64,000 nt of DNA from assembly GCF_048403405.1 (NCBI RefSeq), contig NZ_CP183129.1; one strand, given 5' to 3'. The notes under the pieces are model-generated. The model was not told the origin of the DNA, did no database searches, and saw only the letters and a program-made list of their open reading frames with translations. The DNA is from Escherichia coli. GTDB lineage: Bacteria > Pseudomonadota > Gammaproteobacteria > Enterobacterales > Enterobacteriaceae. Positions 17,585 through 64,000 of this stretch are shown piece by piece. Position 1 is the stretch's first letter. Each line of letters begins with the position of its first letter. The position numbers and the translations under genes are program-made.

Positions 17585-17611
17585 AAAAAATAAGCCCGTG
17601 TAAGGGAGATT
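17585..17611. other. Phage P2 attB core-like sequence (aaaaaataagcccgtgtaagggagatt) at the cyaR 3' end, unoccupied
   Basis: 27-mer read from sequence; matches the P2 attachment core as I recall it; no prophage genes flank it here. Confidence 0.5.
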
Positions 17612-17671
17612 ACACAGGCTAAGGAGGTGGTTCCTGGTACAGCTAGCATTTTATGGGTTATGTTTTTCAGC
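17585..17671 (-). ncRNA. cyaR: CyaR (RyeE) Hfq-dependent sRNA
   Basis: Reverse complement reads GCUGAAAAACAUAACCCAUAAAAUGCUAGCUGUACCAGGAACCACCUCCUUAGCCUGUGUAAUCUCCCUUACACGGGCUUAUUUUUU, matching E. coli CyaR as recalled. Confidence 0.85.
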
Positions 17672-17755
17672 GAAACGGATGATAACCTTAATAAATGCAG
17701 CTGTATGTGATCGGTTTCTAAGAATTTTCCATCCGGGAAAAATAATCGAAATTAA

Positions 17756-30989: not shown

Positions 30990-31128
30990 AACGGGAAAGC
31001 CCCTCCCGAGGAAGGGGCCTTAAATAAGGAAAGGGTCATGATGAAGCTACTCATCATCGTGGTGCTCTTAGTGATTAGCTACCCAGCATACTAAGACTAC
31101 CAGGGCGGGGGAAACCCCGCTCTACCCT
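30990..31128 (-). ncRNA. Sib-family antisense sRNA (type I antitoxin), copy 1; ends approximate
   Basis: Minus-strand promoter-like TTGACA-17-TACTTT near 31135..31165 and hairpin gcccct/aggggc plus U-rich tail near 30995..31018; fully overlaps ibs copy 1. Confidence 0.5.
31038..31094 (+). CDS. Ibs-family type I toxin peptide, copy 1 (MMKLLIIVVLLVISYPAY)
   Basis: 18-codon ORF with SD aaggaaagggtc upstream; Ibs-like hydrophobic peptide. Confidence 0.75.
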   Translation: MMKLLIIVVLLVISYPAY

Positions 31129-31317
31129 CACTCCTGAAAGTATGCCTTCACGATAAGATTGTCAATCTGCAGGCTTTGCAGTCTGCGATCCTGCCAGCAA
31201 ATATTCTTTGCGAGACGTTACGCAATAATCACACTGGAAACTATTTTATCCGCAAGTCAGCGATAGACTGCATACAGGGCGAAAGGAGGTAAGCCGACGA
31301 TTTCAGCGGGACGCTGA

Positions 31318-31456
31318 AACGGGAAAGCCCCTCCCGAGGAAGGGGCCTTAAATAAGGAAAGGGTCATGATGAAGATACTCATCATCGTGGTGCTCTTAGT
31401 GATTAGCTACCCAGCATACTAAGACTACCAGGGCGGGGGAAACCCCGCTCTACCCT
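31318..31456 (-). ncRNA. Sib-family antisense sRNA, copy 2; ends approximate
   Basis: Same elements at equivalent positions in repeat unit 2. Confidence 0.5.
31366..31422 (+). CDS. Ibs-family type I toxin peptide, copy 2 (MMKILIIVVLLVISYPAY)
   Basis: Same position within repeat unit 2. Confidence 0.75.
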   Translation: MMKILIIVVLLVISYPAY

Positions 31457-31646
31457 CACTCCTGAAAGTATGCCTTCACGATAAGATTGTCAATCCGCAG
31501 GCTTTGCAGTCTGCGATCCTGCCAGCAAATATTCTTTGCGAGTCGTTACGCAATAATCACAGAGGAAACTATTTTGGTCACGCGTTAGCGATAGACTGCA
31601 TTCAGGGCGAAAGGAGGTAAGCCGACGATTTCAGCGGGACGCTGAA

Positions 31647-31790
31647 ACGGGAAACCCTCTCCCGGAGAAGAGGGCTTTTAATAAGGAAAGGGTTATGATG
31701 AAGCACGTCATCATACTGGAGATACTCTTAGTGATTAGCTTCCAGGCTTACTAAGAACACCAGGGGGAGGGAGAAACCTCTCCCTAACCC
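31647..31790 (-). ncRNA. Sib-family antisense sRNA, copy 3; ends approximate
   Basis: Equivalent position in unit 3; minus-strand TTGACA-17-TAATTT promoter-like element near 31800..31830. Confidence 0.45.
31695..31754 (+). CDS. Ibs-family type I toxin peptide, copy 3 (MMKHVIILEILLVISFQAY), IbsA-like but with an internal Glu
   Basis: 19-codon ORF in repeat unit 3; GAG codon read directly from sequence. Confidence 0.7.
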   Translation: MMKHVIILEILLVISFQAY

Positions 31791-31974
31791 TCACTCCTGA
31801 AATTATGTCACTCCGCCCTTAGTGTCAATCGACGGCTCTCCGTTCTTGCGAGGCGAATAGCAAAATTTTCTGCGCCGCCGGGCCTAATTCTGAAAGTTTC
31901 TTCGTTTGCTCTTATTTCATTATTGCAATCGGTATGATACCGGGCCTCAATAATTCTCTAAGAAAGGATTTCTT

Positions 31975-44599: not shown

Positions 44600-44890
44600 C
44601 TAAGCAGCATGTGGATATTGAATTTCAATACGTTGAATATGCAATCCTGCATGAGCCATCATGGTGATCAATTTATCGATACTAAAGATCTGGATCTTAC
44701 CTCTGGCAAGTTCAGATATGCGAGGTTGAGTGACCCCTAAAGCAGACGCTGCCTGGGCCTGGCTAAACCCTTGTTGTTCAATCCAGTTATTAATGATCGT
44801 TACAAGTTCGGCACGGATCCGCATATTTTCCGCTTGTTCAGGGGTGTCACTCACCGCATCCCACACACTATCAAAGGTTTCAATTTTCAT
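44600..44890 (-). CDS. HTH (XRE/Cro-C1) antitoxin, HigA-like, 96 aa
   Basis: ORF 44600..44908; ATG at 44890 (MKIETFDS) preferred over the upstream TTG; HTH segment QAQAASALGVTQPRISELARGK; overlaps toxin stop by 11 nt. Confidence 0.75.
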   Translation of the reverse strand: MKIETFDSVWDAVSDTPEQAENMRIRAELVTIINNWIEQQGFSQAQAASALGVTQPRISELARGKIQIFSIDKLITMMAHAGLHIQRIEIQYPHAA

Positions 44891-45218
44891 TTTTCCGCTC
44901 CTGAACAAGTTCTTTATAGCGTCGTTTGGCTAAATCAACATCCGATTGACTGGTAGTCTGTGTTTTCTTTTGAAAACAATGCAATACGTAAACCGCTTCT
45001 TCAAATTTTGCGATATACATGACGCGATAGATCCCATCAGCATCGCGAGTACGAATCTCTCGCACACCAGGGCCGATAGTTGAAAAAGGTTTCCAGTCGT
45101 ATGGGTTTAACCCTTGTTGGATCCTGTCGAGTTGATAGCCAATTTCCTGTCGAGACGATTCTGGAAATGCGCGTAAATCGTCAAGACTGGTATCAAGAAA
45201 AGCCAGCTTTTTTCTCAT
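44880..45218 (-). CDS. RelE/ParE-superfamily toxin (HigB/Gp49-like), 112 aa
   Basis: ORF track; small basic protein upstream of and overlapping an HTH antitoxin (toxin-first order typical of HigBA); SD aaggatggag upstream. Confidence 0.7.
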   Translation of the reverse strand: MRKKLAFLDTSLDDLRAFPESSRQEIGYQLDRIQQGLNPYDWKPFSTIGPGVREIRTRDADGIYRVMYIAKFEEAVYVLHCFQKKTQTTSQSDVDLAKRRYKELVQERKNEN

Positions 45219-46876: not shown

Positions 46877-47344
46877 AGTAAGTACAAAACCTATTCGTTG
46901 TATGACAAATGTCACAATTCGATCATGGATAAATCGGGGCAAAAATGCAATGTTGCAGCACTATTTATCTCATATTATTTGAGGGTAATAACCTCACATT
47001 ACCCCTGAATTAAAAGTGGTAATAATAAAACATTATTTAAGAAATATCGCATGTGGAGACACTATATTAAATATTGTCAACCTAAAGAAACTCCTAAAAA
47101 CCATATTGAATGACACTTAATATAATTCTTAAAAATAGCCAATTGCCGAATTGTTACCTTGCCTGCTATTCCGTTAGCTGTAACACTTCCTCCTGCATTA
47201 TTGGAGAGCCAATATTCAATTACCATAATGTCACCTTATATTCGGAAGTTAATTTCCGCAATAACCCTTTCTCATCAACGACTGTATGTTGAGAGGGTTT
47301 TAAAAATTAAGCTAAATCAGTGTATTGGTAGCTAAAAAGCCAGG

Positions 47345-47356
47345 GGCGGTAGCGTG
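47345..47356 (+). promoter_or_regulatory. ops element (GGCGGTAGCGTG) within a JUMPStart-like leader upstream of wza
   Basis: Exact ops 12-mer read from sequence about 180 bp upstream of the wza ATG; RfaH-dependent antitermination site in polysaccharide operons. Confidence 0.7.
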
Positions 47357-47534
47357 TCTGGATGCCTGAAAGACCAGTCTGAATTATTCTGTCAATAGCC
47401 TGCGGATGAAATCAATTTTTTTAGGACTGATGCCAGTTAAATTTTTATTCAATTAACTGCAAGGTAAATGTGCATGGCGACATTGCTATTAATAGTGCAC
47501 AGGATAATTACTCTGCCAAAGTGATAAATAAACA

Positions 47535-48674
47535 ATGATGAAATCCAAAATGAAATTGATGCCATTATTGGTGTCAGTAACCTTGATAAGCGGTTGCACA
47601 GTACTTCCGGGCAGCAATATGTCGACGATGGGGAAAGACGTCATCAAACAGCAGGACGCTGATTTCGATCTCGACAAAATGGTGAATGTTTATCCGCTGA
47701 CCCCGCGCCTGATTGATCAATTACGCCCACGCCCCAACGTAGCGCGCCCCAATATGACGCTGGAAAGCGAGATCGCGAATTACCAGTATCGCGTCGGGCC
47801 GGGGGACGTTCTTAATGTCACCGTCTGGGATCACCCGGAACTCACCACGCCAGCCGGTCAGTACCGCAGCTCCAGCGACACCGGCAACTGGGTACAGCCT
47901 GACGGCACCATGTTCTACCCGTATATCGGCAAGGTTCACGTCGTGGGGAAAACGCTCGCTGAAATCCGCAGTGATATTACCGGGCGCTTAGCGACGTACA
48001 TCGCTGACCCGCAGGTGGACGTTAATATCGCCGCCTTCCGCTCGCAAAAAGCCTATATCTCCGGTCAGGTGAATAAATCCGGTCAACAGGCGATTACCAA
48101 CGTGCCACTGACCATTCTCGATGCCATCAACGCCGCAGGTGGCCTGACCGACACCGCTGACTGGCGCAACGTGGTGCTAACACACAATGGTCGTGAAGAG
48201 CGCATTTCTTTGCAGGCGCTGATGCAAAACGGCGACCTCAATCAGAACCGACTGCTTTACCCCGGCGATATTCTTTACGTGCCACGTAATGATGATCTGA
48301 AAGTGTTTGTGATGGGTGAAGTGAAGAAACAGAGCACCCTGAAAATGGACTTTAGCGGTATGACCCTGACTGAAGCCCTGGGTAATGCTGAAGGCATCGA
48401 CATGACCACCTCCAACGCCAGCGGCATCTTTGTCATTCGTCCGCTGAAAGGCGAGGGCGGGCGTAATGGCAAGATTGCCAATATCTACCAGCTGGATATG
48501 TCCGATGCCACGTCGCTGGTGATGGCGACAGAATTCCGCCTGCAACCTTATGACGTGGTGTATGTCACCACCGCCCCGGTTTCCCGCTGGAACCGTCTGA
48601 TCAATCAGTTGCTGCCAACTATTAGCGGTGTCCGTTACATGACGGATACAGCCAGCGACATTCATAACTGGTAA
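47535..48674 (+). CDS. wza: Outer-membrane polysaccharide export lipoprotein Wza, 379 aa
   Basis: ORF track; lipobox LISGC; recognised Wza sequence. Confidence 0.9.
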
Positions 48675-52711: not shown

Positions 52712-53925
52712 ATATTCTGCAATTCAATGTGCGACTGGCGGAAGGCGGGGCAGCAGGTGTGGCGTTAGATCTCCACCAGCGTGCGCTGCAACAGGGGCTG
52801 GCATCACATTTTGTCTACGGCTACGGCAAAGGCGGCAAAGAGAGCGTCAGCCATCAGAACTATCCGCAGGTCATCAAACATACGCCGCGGATGACCGCGA
52901 TGGCGAACATTGCGTTGTTTCGTCTGCTTAATCGCGATCTGTTCGGCAATTTCAATGAGTTATATCGTACCATTACTCGCACACCGGGCCCGGTGGTTCT
53001 GCATTTTCATGTGCTGCACAGCTACTGGTTGAATCTTAACAGCGTGGTGCGCTTTTGCGAAAAAGTGAAAAACCATAAACCGGATGTCACTCTGGTCTGG
53101 ACACTGCACGACCACTGGAGCGTTACCGGACGCTGCGCCTTTACCGACGGTTGCGAAGGCTGGAAAACGGGCTGCCAGAAATGCCCGACCTTAAATAATT
53201 ATCCGCCGGTGAAGATTGATCGCGCACACCAACTGGTGGCGGGTAAACGCCAGTTATTCCGCGAGATGCTGGCACTGGGCTGTCAGTTTATTTCCCCCAG
53301 CCAGCATGTGGCTGATGCTTTCAATAGTCTGTACGGTCCAGGGCGTTGCCGGATTATCAATAACGGTATTGATATGGCAACCGAAGCGATTCTGGCGGAC
53401 TTGCCTCCGGTACGCGAAACCCAGGGCAAGCCGAAAATCGCGGTGGTGGCGCATGACCTGCGTTACGACGGCAAAACTAACCAGCAACTGGTACGCGAGA
53501 TGATGGCGCTGGGCGACAAAATCGAACTGCATACTTTCGGTAAGTTCTCGCCGTTCACCGCTGGTAACGTTGTTAATCACGGCTTTGAAACTGACAAACG
53601 TAAACTGATGAGCGCGCTCAACCAGATGGATGCGCTGGTGTTCAGTTCTCGCGTCGATAACTACCCGCTGATTTTGTGTGAGGCGCTATCAATTGGTGTG
53701 CCGGTGATTGCCACCCATAGCGATGCGGCGCGTGAAGTGCTGCAAAAATCCGGCGGTAAAACCGTCAGCGAAGAAGAGGTGCTGCAACTGGTGCAGTTAA
53801 GCAAACCGGAAATTGCGCAGGCGATATTTGGTACCACGCTGGCTGGGTTTAGCCAACGCAGCCGCGCCGCCTACAGTGGACAACAGATGCTGGAGGAGTA
53901 TGTCAACTTCTATCAGAATCTGTAG
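52708..53925 (+). CDS. wcaC: Colanic acid glycosyltransferase (GT4), 405 aa
   Basis: ORF track; overlaps wcaB stop. Confidence 0.85.
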   Translation: MNILQFNVRLAEGGAAGVALDLHQRALQQGLASHFVYGYGKGGKESVSHQNYPQVIKHTPRMTAMANIALFRLLNRDLFGNFNELYRTITRTPGPVVLHFHVLHSYWLNLNSVVRFCEKVKNHKPDVTLVWTLHDHWSVTGRCAFTDGCEGWKTGCQKCPTLNNYPPVKIDRAHQLVAGKRQLFREMLALGCQFISPSQHVADAFNSLYGPGRCRIINNGIDMATEAILADLPPVRETQGKPKIAVVAHDLRYDGKTNQQLVREMMALGDKIELHTFGKFSPFTAGNVVNHGFETDKRKLMSALNQMDALVFSSRVDNYPLILCEALSIGVPVIATHSDAAREVLQKSGGKTVSEEEVLQLVQLSKPEIAQAIFGTTLAGFSQRSRAAYSGQQMLEEYVNFYQNL

Positions 53926-55117
53926 CTACCTACTGCTGCCGCTGATTTACCTGCTGGTTAACGTCAAAATAGCCCAGCTTGGCGAAAGTTTCCCCATTAC
54001 CATCGTCACTTTTTTACCCGTCTTGTTACTGCTGTTTTTAGAGCGCATCAACGTTAAAAAATTGATGATTGCCTTAGGGGTTGGTGCGGGACTCACGGCG
54101 TTTAACTACCTGTTTGGTCAGTCGTTGGATGCCAGTAAATACGTCACTTCAACCATGCTGTTTGTCTATATTGTGATCATTATTGGCATGGTGTGGAGTA
54201 TTCGTTTTAAAACAATTTCGCCACACAACCATCGCAAGATATTACGTTTCTTTTATCTGGTGGTCGGGCTGGTGGTGGCGCTGGCGGCGGTGGAGATGGC
54301 GCAAATTATCCTCACCGGCGGTAGCAGTATTATGGAGTCGATTTCGAAATATCTGATTTACAGCAACAGCTATGTGCTGAATTTCATTAAATTCGGCGGC
54401 AAGCGCACGACAGCACTTTATTTCGAACCGGCATTTTTCGCTCTGGCATTAATCTCAATTTGGCTCAGCATCAAACAGTTTGGTATCAAAACGCCTAAAA
54501 CCGATGCTATGATTCTCGCAGGGATAATATTATCCGGATCGTTTTCAGGGGTTATGACCTTTATCCTTTTTTATTTGCTGGAGTGGGCATTTCAATATCT
54601 GAATAAAGAGGCGATTAAGAAAAAGTTACCGTTAGCATTGGTTTCTCTGGCTGTATTCCTGGTTGGTGTGGTAATCGCGTTTCCTTATATTTCCACCCGT
54701 CTGGGTGATTTAGGCACGGAAGGTTCGTCATCGTATTATCGTATTGTCGGTCCGCTGGTGATGGTCGGTTATTCTTTGACCCATATTGACGGTGTAGTCA
54801 GATTTGGCTCACTTTATGAATATGTCGCATCATTCGGAATATTTAACGGTGCGGATGTCGGAAAAACCATAGACAATGGTTTGTATCTGCTGATTATTTA
54901 TTTTTCCTGGTTCGCAGTGTTTTTATCGCTGTGGTACATGGGGAAAGTGATAAAAATGATGATCAACGCTTTTGGTGATAACCGCAATTTTCGCGTGCAA
55001 TTATATTTTTTTACTCCGGTATCGCTGTTTTTTACCGGTTCGATATTTAGCCCGGAATATGCATTTTTAATCGTCTGTCCGTTTATTTTGCGAAAAGCGT
55101 TAAATATTACGAGGTAA
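53900..55117 (+). CDS. wcaD: Colanic acid polymerase (Wzy-like), 405 aa
   Basis: ORF 53813..55117; start moved to [10 protein letters not shown]; polytopic membrane protein. Confidence 0.8.
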
Positions 55118-55127
55118 GAATAAGAAC

Positions 55128-55874
55128 ATGTTGCTTAGCATAATCACTGTCGCGTTTCGTAACCTCGAAGGGATAGTCAAAACACATGCCTCGCTGGCGC
55201 ATCTAGCGCAGGTGGACGATATCAGCTTCGAATGGATTGTTGTCGATGGCGGTTCCAACGACGGTACCCGTGAGTATCTGGAAAATCTCAAGGGTATCTA
55301 TAACCTACGCTTTGTCAGCGAGCCAGATAACGGTATCTACGACGCCATGAACAAGGGCATTGCGATGGCACAAGGCAAGTTCGCGTTGTTTCTCAACTCG
55401 GGCGATATTTTTCATCAGGATGCCGCAAATTTTGTCCGTAAGTTAAAAGTGCAAAAAGATAACGTGATGATCACCGGCGATGCGCTGCTGGATTTTGGCG
55501 ACGGGCATAAAATTAAACGTAGCGCCAAACCGGGCTGGTATATTTACCACAGCCTGCCCGCCAGTCATCAGGCGATATTTTTCCCGGTGTCCGGCTTGAA
55601 GAAATGGCGTTATGACCTGGAATATAAAGTTTCTTCCGACTACGCGCTGGCGGCCAAAATGTATAAAGCCGGTTATGCATTTAAAAAACTCAATGGCCTG
55701 GTGTCTGAATTTTCCATGGGTGGGGTATCTACCACCAATAATATGGAATTGTGTGCTGATGCCAAAAAAGTCCAACGGCAAATATTACATGTGCCTGGCT
55801 TCTGGGCAGAATTATCCTGGCATTTACGCCAGCGTACTACCTCAAAGACGAAAGCCTTATATAACAAAAGCTGA
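55128..55874 (+). CDS. wcaE: Colanic acid glycosyltransferase (GT2), 248 aa
   Basis: ORF track. Confidence 0.85.
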
Positions 55875-55889
55875 ATATAAGGGAAAACG

Positions 55890-56438
55890 ATGCAGGATTT
55901 AAGTGGGTTCTCGGTGCCGAAAGGGTTCCGGGGCAGCAATGCTATTAAAGTGCAATTATGGTGGGCGGTACAGGCAACAATATTTGCCTGGTCGCCACAA
56001 GTATTGTATCGCTGGCGGGCATTTTTATTACGTTTATTCGGCGCAAAAATAGGAAAAAACGTAGTTATTCGTCCGTCAGTAAAAATTACCTATCCGTGGA
56101 AATTAACCTTAGGTGATTACGCGTGGGTCGGCGATGAGGTCAATTTATATACCCTCGGTGAAATAACCATTGGCGCACATTCGGTGATATCGCAAAAAAG
56201 TTATTTATGCACCGGGAGCCACGACCATGCAAGTCAACATTTCACCATTAACGCCACGCCTATTGTGATTGGCGAGAAATGCTGGCTGGCGACAGATGTT
56301 TTTGTTGCCCCTGGCGTCACGATCGGCAACGGCACCGTCGTGGGTGCGCGAAGCAGTGTTTTTAAATCGCTTCCGGCAAATGTGGTTTGCCGGGGGAACC
56401 CCGCAGTGGTGATACGCAAACGCGTTGAAACTGAATAA
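55890..56438 (+). CDS. wcaF: Colanic acid acetyltransferase (hexapeptide repeat), 182 aa
   Basis: ORF track. Confidence 0.85.
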   Translation: MQDLSGFSVPKGFRGSNAIKVQLWWAVQATIFAWSPQVLYRWRAFLLRLFGAKIGKNVVIRPSVKITYPWKLTLGDYAWVGDEVNLYTLGEITIGAHSVISQKSYLCTGSHDHASQHFTINATPIVIGEKCWLATDVFVAPGVTIGNGTVVGARSSVFKSLPANVVCRGNPAVVIRKRVETE

Positions 56439-56464
56439 ATTCAAAAAATACAGAGGAATAAGAC

Positions 56465-57586
56465 ATGTCAAAAGTCGCTCTCATCACCGGCGTAACCGGA
56501 CAAGACGGTTCTTACCTGGCAGAGTTTCTGCTGGAAAAAGGTTACGAGGTGCATGGTATTAAGCGTCGCGCATCGTCATTCAACACCGAGCGCGTGGATC
56601 ACATTTATCAGGATCCGCACACCTGCAACCCGAAATTCCATCTGCATTATGGCGACCTGAGTGATACCTCCAACCTGACGCGCATTTTGCGTGAAGTGCA
56701 GCCGGATGAAGTGTACAACCTGGGCGCAATGAGCCACGTTGCGGTTTCTTTTGAGTCACCGGAATATACCGCTGACGTCGACGCGATGGGTACGCTGCGT
56801 CTGCTGGAGGCGATCCGCTTCCTCGGTCTGGAAAAGAAAACCCGTTTCTATCAGGCTTCCACCTCTGAACTGTATGGTCTGGTGCAGGAAATTCCGCAGA
56901 AAGAAACCACGCCGTTCTATCCACGCTCTCCGTATGCGGTCGCCAAACTGTACGCCTACTGGATCACCGTTAACTACCGCGAATCCTACGGCATGTACGC
57001 CTGTAACGGTATTCTCTTCAACCATGAATCCCCGCGCCGCGGCGAAACCTTCGTTACCCGCAAAATCACCCGCGCAATCGCCAACATCGCCCAGGGGCTG
57101 GAATCGTGCCTGTACCTCGGCAATATGGATTCCCTGCGTGACTGGGGCCATGCCAAAGACTACGTAAAAATGCAGTGGATGATGCTGCAACAGGAACAAC
57201 CGGAAGATTTCGTTATTGCCACCGGCGTTCAGTACTCCGTGCGTCAGTTCGTGGAAATGGCGGCAGCACAACTGGGCATCAAACTGCGCTTTGAAGGTAC
57301 GGGCGTTGAAGAGAAGGGCATTGTGGTTTCCGTCACCGGGCATGACGCGCCGGGCGTTAAACCGGGTGATGTGATTATCGCCGTTGATCCGCGTTACTTC
57401 CGTCCGGCTGAAGTTGAAACGCTGCTCGGCGACCCGACCAAAGCGCACGAAAAACTGGGCTGGAAACCGGAAATCACCCTCAGAGAGATGGTGTCTGAAA
57501 TGGTGGCTAATGACCTTGAAGCGGCGAAAAAACACTCTCTGCTGAAATCTCACGGCTACGACGTGGCGATCGCGCTGGAGTCATAA
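56465..57586 (+). CDS. gmd: GDP-mannose 4,6-dehydratase, 373 aa
   Basis: ORF track; SDR motifs GVTGQDGSY. Confidence 0.9.
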
Positions 57587-59036: not shown

Positions 59037-60256
59037 AAATACTGGTCTACGGCATTAACTACTCGCCGGAGTTAACCGGCATCGGCAAGTACACCGGCGA
59101 GATGGTGGAATGGCTGGCGGCACAAGGTCATGAGGTGCGGGTTATTACCGCACCGCCTTACTACCCGCAATGGCAGGTGGGCGAGAACTATTCCGCCTGG
59201 CGGTACAAACGAGAAGAGGGGGCCGCCACGGTGTGGCGCTGCCCGCTGTACGTGCCAAAACAGCCGAGCACCCTGAAACGCCTGTTGCATCTCGGCAGTT
59301 TTGCCGCCAGCAGTTTCTTTCCGCTGATGGCGCAACGTCGCTGGAAGCCGGATCGCATTATCGGCGTGGTGCCAACGCTGTTTTGCACGCCGGGAATGCG
59401 CCTGCTGGCGAAACTGTCTGGTGCGCGCACGGTGCTGCATATTCAGGATTACGAAGTGGACGCCATGCTGGGGCTGGGCCTTGCCGGAAAAGGCAAAGGC
59501 GGCAAAGTGGCACAGCTGGCGACGGCGTTCGAACGTAGCGGACTGCATAACGTCGATAACGTCTCCACGATTTCGCGTTCGATGATGAATAAAGCCATCG
59601 AAAAAGGCGTGGCGGCAGAAAACGTCATCTTCTTCCCCAACTGGTCGGAAATCGCCCGTTTTCAACATGTTGCAGACGCCGATGTTGACGACCTTCGTAA
59701 CCAGCTTGCCCTGCCGGATAACAAAAAAATCATTCTTTACTCCGGCAATATTGGTGAAAAGCAGGGGCTGGAAAACGTTATTGAAGCTGCCGATCGCCTG
59801 CGCGATGAACCGCTTATTTTTGCCATTGTCGGGCAGGGCGGCGGCAAAGCGCGGCTGGAAAAAATGGCGCAGCAGCGTGGACTGCGCAACATGCAATTTT
59901 TTCCGCTGCAATCATATGACGCTTTACCCGCACTGCTGAAGATGGGCGATTGCCATCTGGTGGTGCAAAAACGCGGCGCGGCAGATGCCGTATTGCCGTC
60001 GAAACTGACCAATATTCTGGCGGTAGGCGGTAACGCGGTGATTACTGCTGAAGCCCACACAGAACTGGGACAGCTTTGCGAAACCTTTCCGGGCATTGCG
60101 GTTTGCGTGGAACCGGAATCGGTCGAGGCGCTGGTGGCGGGGATTCGTCAGGCGCTCCTGCTGCCCAAACACAACACGGTGGCACGTGAATATGCCGAAC
60201 GCACGCTCGATAAAGAGAACGTGTTACGTCAATTTATAAATGATATTCGGGGATAA
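59033..60256 (+). CDS. wcaI: Colanic acid glycosyltransferase (GT4), 407 aa
   Basis: ORF track; overlaps gmm stop. Confidence 0.85.
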
Positions 60257-63220: not shown

Positions 63221-64000
63221 ATGACAAATCTAAAAAAGCGCGAGCGAGCGAAAACCAATGCATCGTTAATCTCTATGGTGCAACGCTTTTCAGATATCAC
63301 CATCATGTTTGCCGGACTATGGCTGGTTTGCGAAGTGAGCGGACTGTCATTCCTCTACATGCACCTGTTGGTGGCGCTGATTACGCTGGTGGTGTTCCAG
63401 ATGCTGGGCGGCATCACCGATTTTTATCGCTCATGGCGCGGTGTTCGGGCATCGACAGAATTTGCTCTGTTGCTACAAAACTGGACGTTAAGCGTGATTT
63501 TCAGCGCCGGACTGGTGGCGTTTAACAATGATTTCGACACGCAACTGAAAATCTGGCTGGCGTGGTATGGACTGACCAGCATCGGACTGGTGGTTTGCCG
63601 TTCGTGTATTCGCATTGGGGCGGGCTGGCTGCGTAATCATGGCTATAACAAACGCATGGTCGCCGTAGCGGGGGATTTAGCCGCCGGACAAATGCTGATG
63701 GAAAGCTTCCGTAATCAGCCGTGGTTAGGGTTTGAAGTGGTGGGCGTTTACCACGACCCGAAACCGGGCGGCGTTTCTAACGACTGGGCGGGCAATCTGC
63801 AACAACTGGTCGAGGATGCGAAAGCGGGCAAGATTCATAACGTCTATATCGCGATGCAGATGTGCGACGGCGCGCGAGTGAAAAAACTGGTCCATCAACT
63901 GGCGGACACCACCTGTTCGGTGCTGCTGATCCCCGATGTCTTTACCTTCAACATTCTCCATTCCCGTCTCGAAGAGATGAACGGCGTACCGGTGGTGCCG
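63221..64000 (+). CDS. wcaJ: Undecaprenyl-phosphate glucose phosphotransferase WcaJ, 5' portion only (runs off the window)
   Basis: Open frame from ATG 63221 to the window end (MTNLKKRERAKTNASL…); absent from the ORF track because no stop is reached. Confidence 0.8.
   Translation, partial: MTNLKKRERAKTNASLISMVQRFSDITIMFAGLWLVCEVSGLSFLYMHLLVALITLVVFQMLGGITDFYRSWRGVRASTEFALLLQNWTLSVIFSAGLVAFNNDFDTQLKIWLAWYGLTSIGLVVCRSCIRIGAGWLRNHGYNKRMVAVAGDLAAGQMLMESFRNQPWLGFEVVGVYHDPKPGGVSNDWAGNLQQLVEDAKAGKIHNVYIAMQMCDGARVKKLVHQLADTTCSVLLIPDVFTFNILHSRLEEMNGVPVVP

Follow-up and report, generated by a model that had tools for sequence, protein, structure and literature searches.

The locus described here raises a simple question: why is wcaD, in the middle of the colanic acid cluster of Escherichia coli, so much richer in A and T than the genes that surround it, and does this composition betray a mosaic origin of the gene? 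The question was followed in a stretch of 64,000 nucleotides (the window), in which the gene occupies the following position:

53900..55117, + strand: wcaD coding sequence, colanic acid (Wzy-type) polymerase, 405 aa, GC 42.3%, T 34.5%

The name of the gene is secure, since the protein matches the NCBIfam WcaD equivalog TIGR04010 over its full length (residues 1-404 of 404) with 870.5 bits, far over the cut-off of 589.65, and its homologues bear the precomputed Pfam family PF27321. WcaD is a polytopic membrane protein with a WaaL/SEDS-type (Wzy/WaaL-type) fold that, according to an annotation made by inference, putatively polymerises undecaprenyl-diphosphate-linked repeat units. The description "Wzy-like", used in the initial annotation, is supported by distant members of the family, 13 of 61 of which match Pfam Wzy_C (PF04932; best 2.1e-6) in the alignment; WcaD itself has no match in Pfam, Wzy_C included, even at E <= 1, and the PDB, searched by sequence with the protein as well as the family profile, returned no match. 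The gene sits between wcaC and wcaE in the wza-wzb-wzc-wcaA...wcaM cluster, in an order taken from the RefSeq annotation of the identical record with every gene mapped onto the window, and the genes around it match their own NCBIfam equivalogs. Of the Wzx/Wzy partners, wza, wzb and wzc precede wcaD in the window, wcaJ starts at 63221 and wzxC follows just downstream of wcaJ in the identical record. Two further features define the operon context:

47318..47356, + strand: JUMPstart/ops element upstream of wza (Rfam RF01707, 57.3 bits), containing GGCGGTAGCGTG
53900..53925, + strand: overlap of 26 nt between the 3' end of wcaC and the 5' end of wcaD, from coordinates and sequence

In this operon context the first points to RfaH-dependent read-through of the long wza-wcaM operon, and the second, together with the Shine-Dalgarno sequence GGAGGAG at 53890-53896, just 5' of the wcaD start, suggests translational coupling of wcaC and wcaD. 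The strongest synonymous-constraint window of a scan of 12 genes, 53881-53913, falls at this overlap (observed/expected 0.15).

The G+C content of each gene of the colanic acid cluster was reportedly tabulated by Stevenson et al. in 1996. In the window, the markedly AT- and T-rich character that the initial annotation had seen by eye is borne out by calculation: the GC content of wcaD, the lowest among the wca genes, lies outside the range of its neighbours (42.3 vs 47-56%), and T reaches 34.5% vs 21-26%. The 12 other wca genes in the window, when pooled, have 54.4% GC (GC1 60.5, GC2 39.2, GC3 63.4) and 21.7% T, against values of 42.4, 34.7 and 49.8 at the three codon positions of wcaD; taken singly they span 51.5-55.9% GC, save for the low wcaE and wcaF. 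Of all windows of 1218 bp in the 64 kb, just 0.72% have a GC content as low as that of wcaD, and no other stretch of that length on the + strand is as T-rich. The codon adaptation index (CAI), calculated with the E. coli weights of Sharp & Li (1987) and to be read by its ranks, not its absolute values, is 0.242 for wcaD, sixth lowest among the 68 non-O-antigen genes in the window; of the other wca genes, wcaF alone falls below it (0.214), and the remaining ones extend from 0.286 (wcaM) up to 0.527 (gmd). Over the whole window the GC3 of wcaD (0.50) is not extreme, and in overall rare codon content (4.7%) it does not stand out from wzb, gmm, wcaM and wcaF; three rare codons (AGA, CTA, ATA) fall among its first 25. 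The placing of the low GC in wcaD thus holds for the gene itself but not as a limit, as the profile stays low on to about 56.4 kb.

How much of this deficit is owed to the protein can be calculated. With its own amino acids, and codons used as in the other wca genes, wcaD is predicted to have 48.3% GC, while 42.4% is observed, and GC3 is 49.8% instead of 63.7%, 14 points short of expectation (z = -6.2). Across 78 species the deficit divides into -6.3 points from amino acids and -6.0 points from synonymous choice, the synonymous part being negative in 78/78. About half of the GC deficit of wcaD is therefore protein composition, spread over the whole gene, and the other half is synonymous. As for the first half, WcaD, a polytopic membrane protein, contains an unusual abundance of Ile, Phe, Tyr, Lys, Asn and Leu, a bias that lowers GC at codon position 1, brings T to position 2 and explains some 6 of the roughly 12 missing GC points; the other 6 or so come from a regional synonymous shift to A/T-ending, mainly T-ending, codons and to TTR codons for Leu. 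That transmembrane helices with their U-rich codons account for the whole of the AT- and T-richness is a reading to which the 44.8% T at second codon positions, the GRAVY of 0.86, the FYMINK fraction of 0.36 (0.21-0.31 in the other wca genes in the window, wcaM 0.34) and an amino-acid part of -6 points all lend themselves, yet it reaches only half of the deficit and leaves GC3 14 points under expectation. Moreover, WzxC (GRAVY 0.88, 54.4% GC, 71% GC3) and MdtD (GRAVY 0.80, 55.8% GC) are hydrophobic but GC-rich, so hydrophobicity alone is insufficient; GatC and YegT belong to the same group of equally hydrophobic proteins encoded at 50-56% GC, and the synonymous shift is also found in the soluble WcaE and WcaF. 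As a complete explanation, membrane-protein composition is refuted by the synonymous half and by these GC-rich genes, and we regard it as extremely improbable.

The synonymous half does not follow the limits of wcaD. Change-point fitting delineates a regional trough that takes in two further genes:

about 54325..56617, no strand assigned: regional synonymous (GC3) trough, 2.3 kb, 44.8% GC
55128..55874, + strand: wcaE (GT2 glycosyltransferase), GC 47.0%, with the same synonymous AT shift
55890..56438, + strand: wcaF (hexapeptide acetyltransferase), GC 48.3%, GC3 48.6%

The trough runs from about codon 142 of wcaD to its stop, covers wcaE and wcaF entirely and takes in the first 50 or so codons of gmd. 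Before, within and after it, GC3 is 0.675, 0.504 and 0.698 over 63 taxa and 0.633, 0.489 and 0.662 in E. coli, whose own change points are 54415 and 56581, and runs of at least five A/T bases number 37 per kb in the trough vs 14-19 per kb in the flanks. In 63/63 taxa GC3 is higher in codons 1-130 of wcaD than in codons 141-405. The synonymous part of wcaE, -2.8 points in E. coli, has a negative sign in 73/73 species; the deficit of wcaF is all synonymous (-6.8 points vs an amino-acid part of +1.1) and negative in 74/74. The trough is found in every enterobacterial genus examined. CAI is nearly equal in the N-terminal, GC3-normal part of wcaD (0.248) and in the part within the trough (0.239), which weakens a simple view of the trough as a run of non-optimal codons.

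The suggestion that this composition is a mark of mosaic origin finds no support in any test that was run, whether of the GC offset (constant), distances (congruent), synteny (conserved) or substitutions (balanced). wcaD does show a base composition atypical with respect to its flanks, as is expected of a horizontal segment. In 75 of 78 species, drawn from about 30 genera, no wca gene has a lower GC content than wcaD, and the offset stays constant at -12.3 +/- 1.7 points (the 78 being those, of the 80 species recovered, with enough flanking genes). The gene is present in 80/80 species and in 4791/5426 E. coli genomes; in 4780/5426 at least 80% of the wcaC-gmd block is covered by one syntenic place. 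Among the records listed, the divergent E. coli NZ_CP169023.1 aligns from wcaC to gmd in a single 4.3-kb alignment of about 79% identity, so that its divergence, in an identity band holding 76 records, runs through wcaC-gmd and is not that of wcaD alone. Neither patchy presence nor divergent alleles limited to wcaD were found among the E. coli genomes and the 80 species. WcaD, with 81-94% identity between genera, dN/dS 0.059 and dN 0.068, is among the better conserved proteins of the colanic acid cluster, and its distance matrix correlates with those of wcaC, wcaA and wcaI at rho 0.86, 0.80 and 0.80, the highest values in the table; on distance matrices, by which congruence was judged, no phylogenetic incongruence with these three genes was found. 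At the edges of the block only short repeats at chance level occur, with no flanking repeats or IS elements, and no Rfam family, tRNA families included, exceeded the threshold near the low-GC block.

Synonymous sites of wcaD are saturated (dS about 1.27). Polarised synonymous changes in the trough number 2336 from AT to GC and 2298 from GC to AT, a ratio of 1.02, where simulations on the same tree give about 0.9 if composition is stationary and 1.7-2.1 under amelioration; the test is parsimony-based and approximate at saturated sites. This balance indicates a composition at equilibrium and not a fading import, and together with the presence of the trough in every genus examined it argues for a maintained equilibrium in place of the fading signature of a foreign insertion. 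The AT-richness of wcaD is old, stable and common to some 30 enterobacterial genera, with no sign of recent mosaic origin.

The mosaic reading of the initial annotation could also refer to an older event, in which the assembly of the cluster brought in wcaD, or a wcaD-E-F module, from a low-GC donor whose composition it has kept. Horizontal transfer is the standard inference from atypical GC (PMC3715488), the low-GC block corresponds to a module of WcaD, GT2 and hexapeptide acetyltransferase that recurs beside distant WcaD homologues (loci L084, L087 and L088), a colanic-acid-like cluster of 34% GC contains the closest non-orthologous relative (45% identity), and the slowly evolving amino-acid part (dN 0.068) could in principle be a frozen relic. 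The flanks, however, are congruent on distance matrices, the gene occurs in all 80 species with its constant offset in 78, conservation extends to the wcaC/wcaD overlap, the trough has its 5' boundary inside wcaD, and repeats, IS elements and tRNA genes are lacking at the block edges. At the saturated synonymous sites the ratio is 1.02 or 0.79 vs the 1.7-2.1 expected, and in a relative with 58% GC only the WcaD gene is GC-poor, not its GT2 and acetyltransferase partners. On balance we consider such an ancient import very unlikely.

A further property of the trough concerns regulation. In Warman et al. 2020 (PMC7229825), wcaD served as an example of an H-NS-repressed, AT-rich gene with an intragenic promoter, and both primers of that study match the window exactly, at 54471-54493 and 54534-54551. 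Around them, the following features can be placed:

54471..54551, + strand (sense): fragment with the published H-NS-repressed, AT-tract-dependent intragenic sigma70 promoter (primers from PMC7229825)
54505..54513, + strand: extended -10 element TGCTATGAT of the wcaD promoter, over the Asp-Ala-Met-Ile codons 202-205
54440..54520, + strand: synonymous-constraint block A, wcaD codons 181-207, observed/expected 0.44
54812..54901, + strand: synonymous-constraint block B/C, wcaD codons 305-334, observed/expected 0.49

The position of the -10 element was deduced from the primer design in PMC7229825 and its sequence confirmed in the window. Within it, TGNTATGAT is kept in 60/63 taxa despite changes of residue 203 between Ala, Gly and Val; one taxon naturally has the synonymous form GAC GCG ATG ATC in place of GAT GCT ATG ATT. 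Block A takes in the -35 region and the -10 element together with the sequence 5' of the promoter, with the spacer codons 198-201 varying freely, and only 0.16% of same-size windows in the 12 genes are as low. Block B/C, likewise in the lowest 0.16%, contains invariant rare codons (GGA 63/63, TCA 63/63, ATA 53/53) and an 11-codon core whose ratio of 0.22 is the second of 3854 windows; it also holds a promoter-like site, with TAGACA at 54870-54875 (kept in 59/63 taxa), a 16-nt spacer and GATTAT at 54892-54897. The 45%-identical homologue at locus L084 is without block A and the -10 element. Warman et al. read promoters of this kind as chance products of AT-richness (PMC7229825), but the synonymous conservation of the extended -10 element and of block B/C over 63 taxa means that these sites may not be "spurious"; this by-product of the analysis is possibly new. 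The list that PMC7582179 gives of the top derepressed genes in a delta-hns strain grown at 25 C includes the genes from wcaD to wcaI but not wza-wcaC, which is suggestive only.

Other sources of the constraint were considered. Overlapping small ORFs, antisense and sense, were rejected: the antisense ORFs 54418-54489 and 54814-54876 remain open, yet their third codon positions coincide with those of wcaD and cannot account for third-position invariance; the sense ORF 54804-54872 has 52 distinct translations and is not conserved. The inverted repeat 54834-54848 / 55098-55112 was also set aside as a source of RNA pairing close to the start of wcaE, as its second arm is not conserved. Ascertainment bias through the peptide patterns with which the loci were retrieved was rejected too, since constraint is lacking at the remaining five pattern sites. 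Folding of both blocks on both strands gave no structure signal (z -0.52 to +0.84), and an Rfam search of the whole window gave no match inside wcaD-wcaF. A consensus scan of 51.3-58.6 kb found 9 promoters and 9 terminators vs 8.7 and 8.6 by chance, hence no enrichment. The published wcaD promoter, which is non-canonical, is missed by that scan.

What maintains the trough is a separate issue. About 11 of the 68 non-O-antigen genes in the window have a synonymous AT shift equal to or stronger than that of wcaD, so weak codon selection with no adaptive role also fits. Codon selection might be relaxed on three low-abundance proteins, leaving the trough nearer an AT-biased mutational equilibrium, its AT-richness functionless and H-NS binding and promoters by-products; the GC3 of wcaD within the normal spread of window genes, the low CAI of wcaD and wcaF, a stationarity that would be equally expected and the view of Warman et al. 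on chance promoters (PMC7229825) agree with this. Per-protein relaxation, however, predicts neither boundary of a trough that ignores gene limits, with the first ~140 codons of wcaD flank-like in GC3 in 63/63 taxa and the first ~50 codons of gmd inside it, and very strong synonymous constraint acts on blocks within the trough. We hold this neutral account to be unlikely. Probably, wcaD has been vertically inherited in the wza-wcaM operon and owes its AT- and T-richness to two ancient and stable causes, protein composition and the regional synonymous shift. The synonymous equilibrium would then be held by selection at the DNA or mRNA level, in part to keep the translation of low-copy enzymes low or slow, a proposal made for wzy genes at large, and in part for the upkeep of an AT-rich, H-NS-targeted mid-operon segment with its published H-NS-repressed promoter. 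A more specific proposal, which is possible but which we make with some doubt, is that the 2.3-kb segment from wcaD codon ~142 to gmd codon ~50 has been kept at its own GC3 equilibrium (~0.50 vs ~0.68) during the whole evolution of the enterobacteria as a conserved H-NS-targeted regulatory domain. In it the wcaD promoter, a textbook case of the "spurious" promoter in "horizontally acquired" DNA, would be selected and, with the block 54812-54901, could supply wcaE-wcaF-gmd-fcl-gmm-wcaI with an expression route under the control of H-NS and temperature and separate from the Rcs-dependent wza promoter.

By itself the observation is of little weight: the low GC of wzy genes is textbook knowledge, the AT-richness of wcaD as such is already known, and the property is a familiar one of Wzy-type genes in a very well-studied E. 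coli operon. Its value is rather that of a cautionary case: half of the wcaD signal is amino-acid composition and half a stable, lineage-wide equilibrium, and atypical GC alone is no evidence of mosaic or foreign origin. If the by-product result is true, the view of intragenic promoters as accidents of AT-rich, H-NS-bound genes would need qualification, and colanic acid expression would gain an unrecognised internal control point.

That AT-richness is typical of Wzy-type polymerases agrees with a 2025 review (PMC12004945), in which wzy genes have low GC and 5' rare codons tied to low expression, a combination used as a heuristic for spotting them; wcaD, 12 GC points under the pooled wca genes and with rare codons near its 5' end, fits this heuristic, and in 4/4 distant contexts the WcaD-family gene has a GC content under that of its neighbours. 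Like O-antigen wzy, wcaD encodes a polytopic Wzy-type polymerase in a Wzx/Wzy-dependent cluster, lies under its neighbours in GC and has a T-rich coding strand, A/T-ending codons, 5' rare codons and low codon adaptation (PMC12004945). The bias is milder than in the O-antigen wzy of a near-identical strain (42% GC and GC3 0.50 vs 31% and 0.32), and while O-antigen wzy is hypervariable and swapped between strains, WcaD keeps 81-94% identity over about 30 genera, is congruent with the flanking genes and shows strong purifying selection; wcaD is further set apart by a recognisable Shine-Dalgarno sequence and the overlap with wcaC. The closest fold relatives are the O-antigen ligase WaaL and the SEDS polymerases FtsW and RodA (structures 7tpj, 8bh1, 8tj3, 6pl5). 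The low-GC middle flanked by higher-GC sugar-nucleotide and export genes recalls the centres of O-antigen and group 1 capsule clusters (PMC3715488), but those central regions vary by strain and mark real replacement, whereas the wcaD block is universal and syntenic. True replacement is revealed by the same method in Citrobacter youngae (locus L080), where fcl-gmm-wcaI-cpsB has 44-46% GC. Finally, wcaD is one of the six model genes among the H-NS-silenced AT-rich genes (Singh et al. 2014; Warman et al. 2020). It differs from the "horizontally acquired" genes silenced by H-NS in that no acquisition is detectable within Enterobacteriaceae, and from happenstance promoters in that its extended -10 element and upstream region are synonymously conserved in about 60/63 taxa, a degree of conservation unexpected by chance.

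The coding sequence of wcaD (53900-55117, +) has a computed GC content of 42.3% (42.4, 34.7 and 49.8% at first, second and third codon positions) and a T content of 34.5%, versus 54.4% GC (60.5, 39.2 and 63.4%) and 21.7% T for the 12 other wca genes of the window pooled. The initial annotation had described the gene by eye as markedly AT- and T-rich compared with its neighbours, and the calculation bears this out, with the GC content falling outside the range of the flanking genes. Across the 64 kb, only 0.72% of 1218-bp windows are as GC-poor, and wcaD has the highest T content of any 1218-bp stretch on the + strand; the AT-richness is real and highly significant. GC content is also low in wcaE (47.0%) and wcaF (48.3%), so the dip extends to about 56.4 kb. 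The codon adaptation index (weights of Sharp and Li) is 0.242 for wcaD, lower only in wcaF (0.214), and ranges from 0.286 (wcaM) to 0.527 in the remaining wca genes. Few stretches of the window besides wcaD reach so low a GC content; one is the very AT-rich yegH-wza intergenic region (46880-47535, 35-37% GC), in which the JUMPstart/ops element lies (47318-47356). Downstream of the window, in NZ_CP098201.1 (L002; L-numbers denote loci retrieved from other genomes), the distal cluster genes wcaM (47.3% GC) and a gne-like gene (45.3%) also lie under the wca average; the adjoining O-antigen cluster has 31-35% GC and includes an IS1 copy as well as a truncated flippase gene.

The gene call is correct: the protein scores 870 bits against the NCBIfam WcaD equivalog (cut-off 590), and its neighbours each match their own equivalogs. 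Searches of Pfam and of PDB sequences with WcaD itself returned no match. The family is small, with 225 cluster representatives among 1.84 billion proteins, and 13 of 61 aligned members match Pfam Wzy_C; the Wzy-like status of WcaD is supported by its fold and by transitive homology, and its enzymatic activity is inferred. A 602-aa protein from a JGI metagenome (P0113) combines PF27321 (WcaD) with PF00535 (GT2), being either an apparent WcaD-WcaE fusion or the product of a missed stop codon. Distant homologues (29-30% identity; L087 465-3085, L088 2853-6014) are flanked by GT2, hexapeptide acetyltransferase or overlapping GT4 genes, so WcaC/D/E/F-like genes form a recurrent module well outside Enterobacteriaceae.

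Re-encoding the WcaD amino acid sequence according to codon usage in the remaining wca genes gives an expected GC content of 48.3%, versus 42.4% observed, and an expected GC3 of 63.7%, versus 49.8% (z = -6.2). About 6 points of the deficit therefore come from amino acid composition; the FYMINK fraction is 0.36 (Ile 10.9%, Phe 8.9%, Tyr 5.7%), and of the non-O-antigen genes in the comparison, all window genes included, none has a lower GC1. A further 6 points or so are synonymous: T3 is 0.31 (other wca genes 0.18-0.26), the C share of NNY codons, C/(C+T), is 0.31 (others 0.41-0.64), and TTA and ATA serve 14 of 56 Leu and 8 of 44 Ile codons. The synonymous deficit is common to the soluble WcaE and WcaF, and in the latter it is the entire deficit. 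Hydrophobicity as the sole cause is rejected, the genes for WzxC (GRAVY 0.88) and MdtD (GRAVY 0.80) having 54.4% GC (GC3 0.71) and 55.8% GC, respectively.

The synonymous component follows a region rather than the gene. The first 140 or so codons of wcaD have a flank-like GC3 and the fall begins beyond them, a two-break fit putting the trough boundaries at wcaD codon 142 (54325) and gmd codon 51 (56617). GC3 before, in and after it is 0.675, 0.504 and 0.698 in 63 taxa, and 0.633, 0.489 and 0.662 in E. coli; the trough has 44.8% GC and twice the A/T-tract density of its flanks. In all 63 taxa GC3 is higher in the N-terminal than in the C-terminal part of wcaD, and GC1+2 is alike in both (0.388 and 0.383). 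Since GC3 breaks inside the gene and GC1+2 is flat, the amino acid effect belongs to wcaD alone and extends over the whole gene, and the synonymous effect is a regional property of the DNA that crosses gene borders. We prefer an explanation in which the shift would be kept by selection for low expression or for H-NS targeting; its main rival is that weak selection explains the shift.

Low GC is by standard inference read as horizontal transfer (PMC3715488); an import that is still ameliorating would show an excess of AT-to-GC changes. Relative to E. coli, synonymous sites are saturated (median dS by NG86 1.27 for wcaD, 0.9-2.3 for the other eleven genes). The direction of third-position synonymous changes was assigned with Fitch parsimony, using a neighbour-joining tree built from the genes other than wcaD, wcaE and wcaF. 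AT-to-GC and GC-to-AT changes in wcaD number 1165:1222 (ratio 0.79 at 4-fold sites), with ratios of 0.95 in wcaE, 0.86 in wcaF and 0.5-0.7 in the GC-rich neighbours. In simulations that used this tree and matched the observed divergence, the ratio was about 0.9 at a stationary GC of 0.56, about 0.6-0.7 at 0.76, and 1.7-2.1 for a low-GC insert ameliorating toward 0.76. The substitution data of the trough fit stationarity and reject amelioration (pooled binomial P ~1e-67).

A single scan of species-representative genomes gave 80 loci, spread over about 30 enterobacterial genera, 78 of them usable. In 75 of the 78, wcaD has the lowest GC content of the wca genes, its offset being -12.3 +/- 1.7 GC points and -14.9 +/- 3.8 GC3 points; the split into amino acid and synonymous parts (-6.3 and -6.0) is repeated everywhere, the latter being negative in 78/78. 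Identity to E. coli WcaD is 81-94% (mean 88.6%); the protein is better conserved than WcaC, WcaE, Wzc and WcaI, and its dN/dS is 0.059. When all protein distance matrices were compared with one another, wcaD was the gene that agreed best with wcaC (0.86), wcaA (0.80) and wcaI (0.80). Of 5426 E. coli genomes, 4780 have at least 80% of the wcaC-gmd block at one syntenic place, nearly always with 95-99% identity, and 76 E. coli records have it at just 60-80%; the one of these listed, NZ_CP169023.1, is ~79% identical over one 4.3-kb piece and not in wcaD alone. The block borders are free of repeats, IS elements and RNA genes. The reading as a mark of mosaic origin, raised in the initial annotation, fails every test run, with congruent distances, constant offset, synteny, clean borders and no amelioration. 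In the colanic acid operon of enterobacteria the low GC of wcaD is old and stable; one half of it is due to the protein and the other to a regional synonymous shift that is maintained.

The E. coli genomes H22, H57, H71 and the ST131 records show two departures in the wcaC-gmd block: IS5-family insertions within it in some E. coli, and in ST131-type strains an alignment as two pieces with ~70 additional bases. wcaE (55128-55874) is the fastest evolving gene in the 62 loci with all 12 genes (mean protein p-distance 0.236, dS 2.28) and its distance matrix correlates weakly with every other (0.27-0.50), which hints at a history of its own or relaxed constraint. Real compositional mosaicism occurs in other parts of the cluster, in Citrobacter youngae CCUG 30791 (L080; fcl, gmm, wcaI and cpsB at 44-46% GC), Atlantibacter (L076, L081; fcl, gmm and cpsB at 51-55%) and Buttiauxella warmboldiae (L053; wcaA and wcaB at 45-47%), the usual values of these genes being ~55-60%. 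CACSKA010000001.1 (L027), labelled Chryseobacterium sp. 18061, carries a complete enterobacterial-type wca block with Citrobacter-like GC and a WcaD 90% identical to that of E. coli; the assembly is probably mislabelled or contaminated. GCA_022258985.1 and GCA_047337175.1 (L084/L085, 1-17203) hold a rearranged colanic-acid-like cluster of 34% GC, in the order wza-wzb-wzc-wzx-GT4-pyruvyltransferase-unknown-WcaD (45% identity)-GT2-hexapeptide acetyltransferase-gmd-fcl-nudix-GT-wcaJ, with wcaM on the opposite strand. Within the window, a RelE/ParE toxin and HTH antitoxin pair between asmA and yegH (44600-45218, -; GC 42-44%, GC3 0.36-0.39) is by composition a better candidate for a true insertion than wcaD.

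Selection on silent sites was also sought in 12 wca genes of 63 taxa, with 11-codon windows in which synonymous changes are fewer than amino acids predict. The wcaC/wcaD overlap, a positive control, ranks first (ratio 0.15), and three of the next lie within wcaD: codons 307-317 (0.22), 186-196 (0.29) and 200-210 (0.47). Synonymously invariant codons make up 9.4% of wcaD, the highest of the 12 genes (others 0.4-5.8%). Warman et al. (2020) counted wcaD among six H-NS-silenced "horizontally acquired" genes with an intragenic promoter, such promoters depending on an AT-tract and sigma70 residue R451 (PMC7229825); both of their primers are identical to the window sequence and bound 54471-54551. The elements in wcaD are:

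54440-54520, block A, constrained stretch (observed/expected 0.44) with the upstream region, -35 region and -10 element of the published promoter
54505-54513, extended -10 element TGCTATGAT of the intragenic promoter
54812-54901, block B/C, constrained stretch (ratio 0.49) with invariant rare codons GGA (63/63), TCA (63/63) and ATA (53/53)

In block A the spacer codons amid the promoter parts vary freely, and TGNTATGAT is retained in 60/63 taxa despite residue 203 being Ala, Gly or Val. Block B/C holds a promoter-like site, TAGACA-N16-GATTAT, whose TAGACA is retained in 59/63 taxa. Both blocks are absent in a 45%-identical homologue whose colanic-acid-like cluster has 34% GC. The constraint is not explained by RNA structure, by overlapping ORFs, by ascertainment bias of the search patterns or by a proposed pairing with the wcaE leader, each of which was examined. 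This pattern of conservation suggests that the "spurious" wcaD promoter may be under selection.

The third strongest window of the scan, wcaI codons 381-391 (60173-60205, observed/expected 0.26), lies ~55-85 nt upstream of the cpsB start and may be another internal regulatory element. Farther on, the cpsB-cpsG spacer matches the Rfam 'algC RNA' motif RF02929 (61742-61791, +, 78 bits) directly before cpsG, which encodes phosphomannomutase. Other RNA features are those expected of this part of the chromosome: three SIB antitoxin RNAs in tandem, which pair with ibs toxins (31023-31828, -), the CyaR sRNA (17588-17673, -) and a TPP riboswitch upstream of thiM (1318-1414, +).

The view that AT-richness is typical of Wzy-type polymerases agrees with a 2025 review, in which low GC and 5' rare codons are characteristic of wzy genes and thought to hold expression down (PMC12004945); the first 25 codons of wcaD include the rare AGA, CTA and ATA. 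The most derepressed genes listed for an enteroaggregative E. coli delta-hns strain at 25 C include wcaD, wcaE, wcaF, gmd, fcl, gmm and wcaI (288-582-fold; PMC7582179). Given the published work on wzy genes and H-NS, the AT-richness of wcaD is already known in substance, together with some of its consequences.
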